Sequence record: KP869111
Length of the DNA stretch: 64,000 bases
DNA from: Escherichia coli O157 typing phage 13
Reading direction: 5' to 3' (one strand)
The notes under the pieces are model-generated. The model made no database searches. It had not been told where the DNA came from and worked only from the letters and a program-made list of their open reading frames with translations. The position numbers and the translations under genes are program-made. Of the stretch, positions 588 through 59,816 are shown one piece after another. Position 1 is the first letter of the stretch. Each line of letters opens with the position of its first letter.

Positions 588-611
588 TCTTAATTGATTA
601 AATCTTATTTT

Positions 612-635
612 GGGAGACTTCGGTCTCCCATTTTT
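612..635 (+). terminator. Rho-independent terminator after gene 23
   Basis: GC stem GGGAGAC-UUCG-GUCUCCC (612-629) followed by a T-run; immediately after the gp23 stop. Confidence 0.6.
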
Positions 636-639
636 GGTT

Positions 640-909
640 TTATTTCTGTGCAATTTTGATGTAAGTTTTCAAAATATTTTGCCAATTAGGCATACCTTCT
701 TGGACATATGCCGGAGAACCATCTTTGTTTTTGAATGATGCAAGTTTATCAGTGGCCCAATAACCTTTAGCTCGAGCTTCAGAATCAACTTTCATCCATA
801 CTTTGTTGAAGGCATTACCATTAACTTTTGCACCATATTTTTCTACTAACTTAACTGCTTCAGCTTCCAGAACTTTTAAAGTATCTCGTAAGAAACGTGC
901 TTTAGTCAT
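640..909 (-). CDS. Hypothetical 89-aa early protein, antisense between late genes 23 and 24 (locus where T4 carries segD)
   Basis: ORF with strong SD (GAGGAG, 8 nt spacing) and upstream T4-type early promoter on the minus strand; no similarity recognised. Confidence 0.6.
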   Translation of the reverse strand: MTKARFLRDTLKVLEAEAVKLVEKYGAKVNGNAFNKVWMKVDSEARAKGYWATDKLASFKNKDGSPAYVQEGMPNWQNILKTYIKIAQK

Positions 910-934
910 TTTGTTTACTCCTCTGTAGTTGATA

Positions 935-969
935 AGTCTATAGTATCACATACCAAATACGTTGTAAAC
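935..969 (-). promoter_or_regulatory. T4-type early promoter (GTTTAC -35, 18-nt spacer, TACTAT -10)
   Basis: Minus strand reads GTTTACaacgtatttggtatgtgaTACTATagacttatcaac, matching the early-promoter family seen throughout the window. Confidence 0.5.
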
Positions 970-975
970 AATCTT

Positions 976-983
976 TATAAATA
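976..983 (+). promoter_or_regulatory. T4 late promoter TATAAATA upstream of gene 24
   Basis: Exact TATAAATA about 28 nt upstream of the gp24 ATG. Confidence 0.6.
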
Positions 984-1010: not shown

Positions 1011-2294
1011 ATGAGTAAAATCCAAAAATTATTGCGTGAATCTACAACGTCTACTAGCAACTCAATTGGTCGCCCAAATCTCGTTGCTTTGACTCGCGCT
1101 ACGACTAAATTAATATATTCTGACATTGTAGCAACACAAAGAACTAATCAACCTGTTGCTGCTTTTTATGGTATCAAATATCTTAACCCAGATAACGAAT
1201 TCACATTTAAAACCGGTGCTACTTATGCTGGCGAAGTTGGATATGTAGACCGAGAAAAAATTACTGAACTCACAGAAGAATCAAAAGTCACACTAAATAA
1301 AGGTGATTTTTTCAAATATAATAATATCGTCTATAAAGTGTTAGAAGATACACCATTTGCAGATATTCAAGAAAGTGATCTAGAATTAGCTCTTCAGATT
1401 GCAGTCGTTCATTTAAAGGTACGGTTATTTTCAGATGCAGCGGTAACAAGCAAATTTGAAAGCTCTGATAGCGAAATTTCTGATGCAAGATTCCAGATTA
1501 ATAAATGGCAAACTTCAGTCAAATCTCGCAAACTTAAAACTGGTCTCACGGTTGAATTAGCGCAAGATTTGGAAGCGAATGGATTTGATGCCCCTAACTT
1601 CTTAGAGGATTTGCTTGCTACTGAAATGGCTGATGAAATTAATAAAGATATTCTTCAGTCTTTAATTACTGTATCGAAACGTTATAAAGTTACTGGAATT
1701 ACTGACACCGGATTTATTGACTTGAGCTATGCATCCGCTCCAGAAGCAGGTCGTTCATTATATCGAATGGTGTGTGAAATGGTATCACACATTCAAAAAG
1801 AGACAACTTATACTGCAACGTTTTGTGTAGCCTCAGCTCGTGCAGCTGCTATTCTTGCTGCTTCCGGTTGGTTAAAACATAAGCCAGAAGATGACAAGTA
1901 TCTTTCACAAAATGCTTATGGATTCTTGGCAAATGGATTACCTCTTTACTGCGATACCAACAGTCCGTTAGATTATGTTATTGTTGGTGTTGTAGAAAAT
2001 ATCGGCGAAAAAGAAATTGTAGGGTCCATCTTTTATGCTCCATACACTGAAGGAGTAGATTTAGATGACCCGGAACATGTTGGTGCATTTAAAGTTGTAG
2101 TTGATCCAGAAAGCTTGCAACCGTCTATCGGATTATTGGTTAGATATGCTTTATCAGCAAATCCTTACACAGTAGCAAAAGACGAAAAAGAAGCGAGAAT
2201 AATTGATGGTGGGGACATGGATAAAATGGCAGGACGTTCAGACTTGTCTGTTTTACTCGGTGTTAAATTGCCTAAAATTATTATAGATGAATAA
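1011..2294 (+). CDS. 24: Capsid vertex protein gp24
   Basis: 427 aa, same length as T4 gp24 and near-identical over its length as recalled; gp23 paralogue. Confidence 0.95.
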   Translation: MSKIQKLLRESTTSTSNSIGRPNLVALTRATTKLIYSDIVATQRTNQPVAAFYGIKYLNPDNEFTFKTGATYAGEVGYVDREKITELTEESKVTLNKGDFFKYNNIVYKVLEDTPFADIQESDLELALQIAVVHLKVRLFSDAAVTSKFESSDSEISDARFQINKWQTSVKSRKLKTGLTVELAQDLEANGFDAPNFLEDLLATEMADEINKDILQSLITVSKRYKVTGITDTGFIDLSYASAPEAGRSLYRMVCEMVSHIQKETTYTATFCVASARAAAILAASGWLKHKPEDDKYLSQNAYGFLANGLPLYCDTNSPLDYVIVGVVENIGEKEIVGSIFYAPYTEGVDLDDPEHVGAFKVVVDPESLQPSIGLLVRYALSANPYTVAKDEKEARIIDGGDMDKMAGRSDLSVLLGVKLPKIIIDE

Positions 2295-3990: not shown

Positions 3991-5406
3991 TTATGGATAT
4001 GTATAGATGATACCAGTTTCTAAAGCAGTTTTATGGATGATGTATCCATTACGTGATTCTTGAACATCAACTTCTGGATAGTCTTTCATCATCTTCTGAA
4101 GAGTGTAACGATGCAGGTAGTATTTACTATCTGGATCGTCAATTTTCCAATCTTTACCTTCTTCAGTCATTTTTTGTATTTCATCCATAACCCACCAACC
4201 GCACCAGATGTAAGCTGAAGTACGATGTGGAAGAGGATGAACATAAGGTAATTCACCTTCTGGTTCAATTGGAGTCCGTTCAGCAATAACAACTTCAGCG
4301 GTTGAACTAATTGTCTTTGAAGTATAATTATCTTTAGTTAATACTGCTTCAACTTTAATTGTATGAGTACCCGCTGAGGAGGTATCAATACTGTAAGTAT
4401 TGGTAGAATTACTTTCTGCTACGTTGTCTTTCTTCCAAGAATATACAATATTAGTATCACCTGGAGCACCAGTAACAGATGCTGTTAAAGTTGCAGTTCC
4501 ACCAACAGTAGTATTAACTGATGGCGGAGATAAAGAAATGGTGGCACTATTAAATGTCGCATTATTAGTTACTACTGTTGCTTCTGCTGAAATTTCTTTT
4601 GTAACATAATCTGTTGCAGAAACAGATACGGTGCATTTAAGAGTTTTACTTCCGACCTCGGTTGGAGTGAATTTATACGTAGCAGAAGTTGCATCCGGAA
4701 TATTACTGTCATCCATTGACCACTGGAATGATGTAGTAGCACCTGGAGGTGCACTAGAGACATTTGCAGTTAAAGTAATAGGAACACCAAAGACCGTAGT
4801 CGGAGACTCAGGCGTAATTTTTAGTGTTGAAGAATTAGCCTTTTTATTTACAGTCAAAGAAACCGCTGATGATTCTACTGTTTTATCAACGTAATCAGTT
4901 GCAGTCACTGTGACAGAACAAGTTATAGACTTAGTTCCTTCGGATGTTGGTATATATTCAAAGGTTGATTGCTTTTGACCATCAACAGCGACCCCGTCAA
5001 CTTTCCATGTATAAGCAATAGCAGCACCACTAGGTTGATTGCTTACATTAGCAGTGAATGTTGTTGCTGTTCCAATTTCTACTGCCGCCGGAGAAGCCGG
5101 AGTAACAGCGACGGTAGAATTATTTTCTTTCTTATTAACAGTGATAGTTGTTGACGCTTCAGCTATTTCCGGATCTCCTGCGGAAAGTGTATTAGTTGCA
5201 ACCACTTTAATTTTTTTTGTTCCTGCTGGAGAAGCAAGAGTATAATCCATTGTAGCAGCCGTAGAATCCTGTGCTATATCATCTACAGTCCAGACGTATG
5301 TAATAGTACCATCCGGAGTTTCACCTGCAGGTGTAGCAGTGAATGTTTGTGAACCTCCAATAACCCCTGTAGGAGTTATTGGAGATAACGTGACAGTGAA
5401 TGTCAT
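3991..5406 (-). CDS. hoc: Highly immunogenic outer capsid protein Hoc (extended form, about four Ig-like repeats)
   Basis: N-terminus MTFTV...TFTATP and C-terminal capsid-binding tail ...PEGELPYVHPLPHR...TALETGIIYTYP match T4 Hoc; 471 aa versus 376 in T4. Confidence 0.9.
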   Translation of the reverse strand: MTFTVTLSPITPTGVIGGSQTFTATPAGETPDGTITYVWTVDDIAQDSTAATMDYTLASPAGTKKIKVVATNTLSAGDPEIAEASTTITVNKKENNSTVAVTPASPAAVEIGTATTFTANVSNQPSGAAIAYTWKVDGVAVDGQKQSTFEYIPTSEGTKSITCSVTVTATDYVDKTVESSAVSLTVNKKANSSTLKITPESPTTVFGVPITLTANVSSAPPGATTSFQWSMDDSNIPDATSATYKFTPTEVGSKTLKCTVSVSATDYVTKEISAEATVVTNNATFNSATISLSPPSVNTTVGGTATLTASVTGAPGDTNIVYSWKKDNVAESNSTNTYSIDTSSAGTHTIKVEAVLTKDNYTSKTISSTAEVVIAERTPIEPEGELPYVHPLPHRTSAYIWCGWWVMDEIQKMTEEGKDWKIDDPDSKYYLHRYTLQKMMKDYPEVDVQESRNGYIIHKTALETGIIYTYP

Positions 5407-24027: not shown

Positions 24028-24050
24028 CAAAAGGGAGACCGAAGTCTCCC
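24028..24050 (-). terminator. Rho-independent terminator
   Basis: GGGAGAC-UUCG-GUCUCCC followed by UUUUG on the minus strand, directly after the 59-aa ORF stop. Confidence 0.55.
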
Positions 24051-39010: not shown

Positions 39011-39034
39011 TCAAAAGGGAGACCGAAGTCTCCC
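39011..39034 (-). terminator. Rho-independent terminator after gene 32
   Basis: GGGAGAC-UUCG-GUCUCCC followed by UUUUG on the minus strand, just after the gp32 stop. Confidence 0.6.
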
Positions 39035-59794: not shown

Positions 59795-59816
59795 GGGAGA
59801 CCGAAGTCTCCCTAAA
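59795..59816 (-). terminator. Rho-independent terminator after gene 35
   Basis: GGGAGAC-UUCG-GUCUCCC followed by AUUUUUG on the minus strand. Confidence 0.55.

Follow-up and report, generated by a model that had tools for sequence, protein, structure and literature searches.

Between the late capsid genes 23 and 24 of Escherichia coli O157 typing phage 13 lies, on the strand opposite to both, a small gene that probably encodes a dispensable, basic, early accessory protein and probably forms, with its promoter and the hairpin behind gene 23, a self-contained cassette that occupies a hot spot of recombination there. We analysed 64,000 nucleotides of sequence record KP869111 (one strand, 5' to 3'), referred to here as the window, and the features of the junction are given in window coordinates in Table 1. 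Among Mosigvirus (RB69-like) genomes, E. coli O157 typing phages 3 and 6 match the junction at 100% identity, and APCEc01, PhAPEC2 and others at more than 99%.

Table 1. Features of the gene 23/24 junction and related elements, in window coordinates
Feature	Position	Strand	Details
Gene 23, major capsid protein, 3' end	ends 587	+	
Gene 23/24 spacer			423 bp
Stem-loop, gene 23 intrinsic terminator	611..630	+	TGGGAGAC-TTCG-GTCTCCCA; T-run 631-641
Exact copies of the 18-nt stem-loop GGGAGACTTCGGTCTCCC	612-629 (+), 24033-24050 (-), 39017-39034 (-), 59795-59812 (-)		
89-aa ORF	640..909	-	ATG 909-907, TAA 642-640
Shine-Dalgarno sequence	918..923	-	GAGGAG, 8 nt upstream of ATG
T4-type early (sigma-70) promoter	940..969	-	GTTTAC 969-964, TG 948-947, TACTAT 945-940
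Late promoter of gene 24	976..983	+	TATAAATA; kept in all aligned junctions
Gene 24, capsid vertex protein	1011-2294	+	
rnlB, 24.2, 24.3, hoc	downstream of gene 24	-	

Conservation and predicted fold of the antisense ORF

As a feature, the gene is already known. More than 200 GenBank records list it as a CDS for a hypothetical protein, and it belongs to PHROG 6003, which is the same family at the same locus, with no difference at the level of the feature; in the related record OL960576, the CDS comes with annotations of its early promoter and of both flanking terminators. The first-pass annotation of the window, made from the letters alone, had called the product unrecognised. This holds in that we found no homology to a T4 ORF or to a characterised family, and it fails in that the protein had already been annotated and assigned to a PHROG.

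A tblastn search of 50,697 phage records recovered the protein in 239, about 120 of them at 90% identity or higher and about 119 at 31-37% identity. The inspected record of the first group (OL960576) and the megablast matches are Mosigvirus. Among the more distant records, those inspected were Dhakavirus JS98, Yersinia phage vB_YenM_P8, the Mosigvirus LF82-4 and Acinetobacter phage ABPH49. No match in T4 or another Tequatrovirus was present among the matches listed or tallied in this search. The PHROG 6003 HMM, annotated 'unknown function', matched the window protein over its full length (E=2.9e-45, residues 1-89 against profile positions 1-90 of 90). The family includes JS98 orf173 and RB69ORF188c/189c, and appears as 'hypothetical protein' in Mosigvirus and Dhakavirus records.

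The gene is syntenic among its T-even carriers. In JS98, orf173 is encoded on the strand opposite to that of its neighbours, gene 23 and gene 24a, and two metagenomic relatives, L012 and L014 (62% and 70% identity), as well as the copy in Yersinia phage vB_YenM_P8, are likewise found between genes 23 and 24. The ratio dN/dS, computed by the Nei-Gojobori method on unsaturated Dhaka-type pairs, was 0.06-0.14. Residues M1, K3, F6, G31, N32, N35 and Q70 are invariant across three subtypes, and an N-G-N-x-x-N motif at the start of helix 2 is among the invariant positions. The GC content of the ORF, 0.35, equals the base composition of the phage. Judged by these comparisons, the minus-strand ORF of 89 aa that the first-pass annotation had drawn is a real protein-coding gene under purifying selection.

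AlphaFold2 modelled the window protein (A-type) as a helix (residues 3-25), a second helix (31-48), a beta-hairpin (56-70) and a third helix (76-88) with a pLDDT of 87, and gave the same elements for the Dhaka-type (B-type) protein with a pLDDT of 92.8. The window protein is soluble, contains no cysteine and has a pI of 9.8; in 12 of the 13 family members the pI is between 9.2 and 9.9, the remaining member having a pI of 8.0.

The profile searches and structure prediction that had been proposed as a check on the ORF gave family-only matches, the same fold in two alleles and no functional lead. When 1.84 billion representatives were searched exhaustively with the profile, about seven true clusters came back, made up of family members only. 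Two long proteins, P0017 (Big_2-like repeats) and P0020 (tandem 62-aa repeats), also scored against the family profile (E=1e-17 and 1e-6) and were rejected as homologues: each score is the sum of 8-9 weak stretches and was judged to be additive noise, and the all-beta Big_2 fold contradicts the helical model. Pfam was searched with the window protein and 13 family members. DUF4859 appeared below the cut-off in only three Mosigvirus-type sequences, at least 70% identical, and was rejected, the other hits being scattered noise. NCBIfam and PADLOC gave no match. In PDB sequence searches with the single protein and with the profile, RFC1-BRCT was retrieved with E values of 0.075 and 0.67 and rejected as weak, and fold searches of PDB and BFVD returned no significant match. 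A scan of bacterial and archaeal genome contigs gave no relative, and scans of viral and metagenome sequences added only T-even loci. In the literature, we found no expression or functional data on the ORF.

The early promoter and its conservation

The first-pass annotation had credited the ORF with its own T4-type early promoter and a strong Shine-Dalgarno sequence, and both were confirmed (Table 1). The strict T4 early pattern GTTTAC-N15-TGnTAnnnT matches at 940-969 with 0 mismatches; the same element can also be read as TTTACA (968-963), a 17-nt spacer and TACTAT (945-940) with the TG extension, and the hexamer spacing predicts a start site near 933. In the window, counting both strands, this pattern has 18 matches against 2.1 expected from shuffles, an 8-fold enrichment. 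Since it matches an enriched pattern without a mismatch, the ORF promoter falls in the phage's own early-promoter class. Several sites of this pattern, for instance the one at 39017, share the leader TATAGACTTATCAAC with the ORF promoter, which suggests that early promoter and leader may form a repeated module.

The upstream region was aligned for six junctions. Their shared order, read on the ORF strand, is gene 24 start and Shine-Dalgarno sequence, TATAAATA, 6 nt, GTTTACA, a variable spacer, TG-n-TAyTAT, leader, GGAG and ATG. The hexamers and the TG are kept in Mosigvirus, JS98, L012 and L014, and the spacers differ; constant hexamers around a diverging spacer are what a functional promoter looks like. 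The GGAG of the Shine-Dalgarno sequence is kept in most homologous loci and is shifted and degenerate in the metagenomic L014. The late promoter of gene 24 is divergent from the early promoter and lies 6 nt from its -35 element; in the alignment, T4 requires a 1-column gap at this point. On the proximal side, this late promoter belongs to the conserved boundary of the cassette. A promoter conserved in four diverged lineages supports early transcription of the ORF, convergent with that of gene 23, the timing being the one that a promoter of this class would impose. A literature search retrieved no Mosigvirus or Dhakavirus transcriptome covering the ORF.

Junction states, allele exchange and dispensability

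Mapping of presence and absence across 23/24 junctions, another of the checks proposed at the outset, was carried out as a survey sampled from 1497 matching records, and four states were seen. In this sample, the junction is empty in most Tequatrovirus phages and in Klebsiella and Enterobacter T-evens; it holds an annotated homing endonuclease alone in T4 (segD), T6 and Citrobacter phage Ursula; it holds the ORF alone in Mosigvirus, Dhakavirus and a Yersinia phage; and it holds the ORF together with an endonuclease gene in LF82-4, the one genome inspected for this state. Spot checks suggest that the empty state is the commonest in Tequatrovirus. In T2 (AP018813, locus L017, 389-471), where the junction is empty, the gene 23 hairpin comes immediately after the late promoter of gene 24, and an early promoter is lacking. 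The absence of the promoter from an empty site indicates that the promoter travels with its cargo.

Two allele types, about 30-35% identical to each other, move independently of the phage backbone. JS98 and L012 share 94% gp24 identity and both have a duplicated gene 24, with ORFs that are only 29.5% identical: L012 (ERZ27245996 contig, 173 kb; 4001-4273) carries the Mosigvirus-type allele on a Dhaka-like phage. LF82-4 (PV660448, locus L015, 846-1775), one of 13 records in the tblastn search that give E. coli LF82 as host, combines a Mosigvirus backbone with the Dhaka-type allele and a SegD-like GIY-YIG gene. The latter is 57% identical to T4 SegD and lies 3 nt downstream of the ORF homologue, behind the same promoter. 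LF82-4 is identical to the window up to the Shine-Dalgarno sequence of the ORF, which marks one end of the replaced tract; the other end lies within gene 23, about 90 nt short of its 3' end. This locus looks like an endonuclease-associated or a PeSL-type cassette replacement (PeSL, promoter-early stem-loop; see below). From the pattern of these exchanges, promoter, ORF and hairpin behave as a swappable cassette.

In the RB69 reference (NC_004928, locus L004, 9292-9532), the ORF has lost 1 nt at one point and gained 1 nt at another compared with the window and is thereby split into RB69ORF188c and RB69ORF189c, which represents either real pseudogenisation in a laboratory strain or errors in an old sequence. 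The copy in phage mogra is also split. Because it is split in the RB69 reference and in mogra and absent from T4 and T2, the gene is on this comparative evidence dispensable, allowing that the RB69 frameshifts could be sequence errors.

The only homologues from outside the T-evens are C-type sequences, 31-36% identical to the window protein, found in Acinetobacter phage ABPH49 (Vequintavirinae) and in related metagenomic contigs. These rV5-like homologues belong to long arrays in which small unannotated genes all point the same way. Promoters and stem-loops were scanned at one rV5-like locus, L023 (Logan SRR30397407 contig, 4923-5340), where the C-type homologue is one of more than 20 small ORFs arrayed on the same strand. 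A sigma-70-like promoter stands before it, and after it come a stem-loop and then a near-consensus TTGACA-17-TATACT promoter for the next gene, a neighbourhood typical of early accessory regions.

A candidate early accessory protein

Under the reading that we consider probable, that of a dispensable early accessory protein, unmodified host sigma-70 RNA polymerase would transcribe the ORF leftward in the first minutes of infection, as the promoter class implies, and the mRNA would reach at least as far as the hairpin, which is also the terminator of gene 23. The product would be small, soluble and basic, would fold as helix-helix-beta-hairpin-helix without a catalytic motif, and would bind a host or competitor macromolecule stoichiometrically. 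Given the conserved positive charge, its target would most likely be a nucleic acid or a nucleic-acid-handling protein. The argument for a binding protein, which is the most likely role, consists of the small size, the charge, the lack of catalytic motifs and the genomic neighbourhood. Such an accessory factor, of the host-takeover or counter-defence class, would help the phage only in some hosts, and would be neither a capsid protein nor an endonuclease. The ORF would fall silent late in infection, when transcription of gene 23 would read through and the early promoter would no longer be used. T-even lineages would exchange the cassette by recombination between the promoter block and the hairpin, sometimes along with a SegD-like gene.

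T4 makes several small early host-directed proteins, among them AsiA, Alc, Ndd, Arn and Dmd, which are expected to act by binding a target. The likeness of the window ORF to these is one of analogy only, namely a length below 100 aa, an early promoter, dispensability in the laboratory and no enzymatic motif; they differ from it in that there is no relationship in sequence or in fold. In T-even genomes, small early genes that are uncharacterised number in the region of a hundred.

A more far-reaching version, which we advance tentatively and think unlikely in its full form, is that the product would be an early effector of new fold, acting in counter-defence or host takeover, of which two ancient alleles would circulate in Mosigvirus, Dhakavirus and Yersinia T-evens. 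Their exchange would be driven in part by a hitch-hiking SegD-like endonuclease, and the interval from promoter to hairpin would serve as a dedicated docking site between genes 23 and 24; in T4, this site and promoter would drive segD.

The patchy distribution and the exchanged alleles also bear on the possibility that the protein is a specific counter-defence factor directed against one bacterial anti-phage system, its alleles being kept and shuffled by an arms race. Smallness, early expression and dispensability would suit such a factor, as would alleles of about 30-35% identity exchanged independently of the backbone and homologues located in rV5-like accessory-gene arrays. However, the protein has no similarity to characterised proteins, and selection within each allele type is strongly purifying (dN/dS about 0.1) rather than diversifying. 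We consider this explanation, which the first-pass annotation had raised in naming an anti-defence protein, possible and rather unlikely.

The shared hairpin and the ends of the two transcripts

The ORF ends, as had been noted from the letters alone, at the gene 23 hairpin, whose energy is -14.4 kcal/mol on the plus strand and -13.5 kcal/mol on the minus strand (z -4.2 and -5.0). Past the hairpin, the plus strand reads TTTTTGGTTTT; this is the T-run that completes the terminator of gene 23, and it overlaps the stop codon of the ORF (640-642). In the minus-strand mRNA of the ORF, the hairpin begins 9 nt past the stop codon and is followed by AAAAUAAGAUUU, with no U-tract. Because the ORF strand has no U-tract, the hairpin is a canonical intrinsic terminator for gene 23 only; the terminator scan reported this site on the plus strand only, with no Rho-independent terminator for the ORF transcript there. 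The 18-nt core of the stem-loop is 100% identical in all four ORF-bearing lineages, including JS98, L012 and L014, and the hairpin is the distal boundary of the cassette.

This arrangement of the transcript ends raises the question of a function at the level of RNA. The early leftward RNA would run through the U-less hairpin and act as an antisense ('anti-late') RNA to gene 23, late read-through would silence the ORF, and the peptide would be secondary. The minus-strand hairpin without a U-tract is consistent with such a function, and so are the overlap of the T-run with the ORF stop, by which both transcripts must overlap, and the retention in T4 of a homologous promoter before a different cargo, segD. 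We nevertheless hold it to be improbable: selection on the protein sequence is strongly purifying, phages in which no capsid gene adjoins the ORF have conserved it too, and T2-type phages have no promoter here, so that antisense control of gene 23 is no general requirement.

Comparison with T4 segD

The first-pass annotation had placed the ORF in the intergenic site where T4 carries the homing-endonuclease gene segD. The two genes do share this slot and the same antisense orientation, and the order of late promoter, -35 element and extended -10 element upstream of T4 segD is that of the window. The cargo is unrelated, 223 aa in T4 against 89 aa here. The reported absence of GIY-YIG motifs was confirmed, as the ORF protein gave no GIY-YIG match in Pfam even at E<=10; BLASTP aligned it with SegD over only 17 residues (E=0.022), a similarity that we rejected. 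The ORF product is not a member of the Seg family. The idea that the ORF stands in place of segD is right as to the site and too simple as to the rest, in that ORF and endonuclease are not simple alternatives: they occur in tandem in LF82-4 behind the same promoter.

Could the ORF be a part or remnant of a homing endonuclease, that is, a degenerate DNA-binding module, or else a helper or immunity factor for the SegD-type endonuclease of this site? The slot, orientation and promoter held in common with T4 segD would accord with this, as would the tandem in LF82-4, with the SegD-like gene 3 nt away. Yet the protein has neither SegD similarity nor a GIY-YIG or other nuclease domain, and the ORF is absent from the T4 segD locus. 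In addition, the ORF stands without an endonuclease gene in Mosigvirus, JS98, L012, L014 and the rV5-like arrays inspected, LF82-4 being the sole exception. This explanation is largely refuted and, in our estimation, very improbable.

Upstream of segD in T4 (NC_000866, locus L003, 7254-7282, minus strand), we observed TTTACA-17-TATTAT with an extended -10 TG. T4 segD is accordingly placed, by prediction, behind a good sigma-70-type promoter that is positionally homologous to the ORF promoter. According to a 2010 review, bioinformatic searches failed to find a segD-specific promoter (PMC2988022). Our search of the literature yielded nothing on segD timing. The predicted T4 segD promoter and the picture of cassette exchange are the most useful leads from this analysis.

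Likeness to PeSL cassettes

PeSL motifs have been linked to modular ORFan shuffling in T4-type phages (Arbiol et al. 2010, PMC2839356; Comeau et al. 2014, PMC4122927). As at PeSL sites, the locus differs between close relatives by insertion, deletion or replacement, and the same stem-loop recurs in the window, where two copies adjoin early promoters. The exact 18-nt stem-loop has 4 copies in the window against 0 expected (Table 1). At 24033 and 39017, an early promoter of the form GTTTAC...TGTTAsTAT lies no more than about 50 nt beyond the stem-loop, and these two motifs, found here in a Mosigvirus, resemble composite, PeSL-like elements. The junction between genes 23 and 24 differs from a PeSL in three ways. 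Its promoter and stem-loop lie on either side of the ORF instead of being joined in a single composite motif; the orientation of the stem-loop is that of a terminator for gene 23, the late gene that converges on the ORF; and the site is inside a conserved late structural block, not in a hyperplastic region. Taken at the level of sequence, the locus appears to work like a PeSL-type ORFan cassette that is atypical in its layout.

As a feature, this gene is ordinary and already catalogued, and its value is that of a compact test case. A single promoter-ORF-hairpin unit is set in an otherwise invariant late operon, and its natural states are empty, ORF, segD, and ORF with a SegD-like gene. With two diverged alleles that cross genus boundaries, the locus is handy for following the movement of accessory genes and homing endonucleases among co-infecting T-evens, and it is convenient for assigning a function to PHROG 6003.

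The flanking capsid genes

The position of the ORF between genes 23 and 24, syntenic in Mosigvirus, Dhakavirus, the Yersinia phage and the metagenomic relatives, would agree with a role in head morphogenesis, as a chaperone or regulator of gp23 or gp24. Against this, the ORF is on the opposite strand and has an early rather than a late promoter, and T4 and T2, with closely homologous capsid genes, lack it. The ORF is also frameshifted in the RB69 reference, its rV5-like homologues are found among small early-type genes, and its alleles swap independently of gp24. We regard such a role as highly improbable. An unexpressed chance ORF in an AT-rich spacer, for which small size and nothing else speaks, is practically out of the question and is refuted by the comparative data: a protein conserved down to 30% identity with intact frames, a dN/dS of about 0.1, a conserved Shine-Dalgarno sequence and promoter, and a confident predicted fold.

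Downstream of gene 24, the ORF at the hoc position (3991-5406, minus strand) encodes 471 aa, among which are several repeated Ig-like segments. The hoc CDS of T4 is shorter (1,131 nt, about 376 aa); in the related record OL960576, the ORF at this position is annotated as head outer capsid protein.
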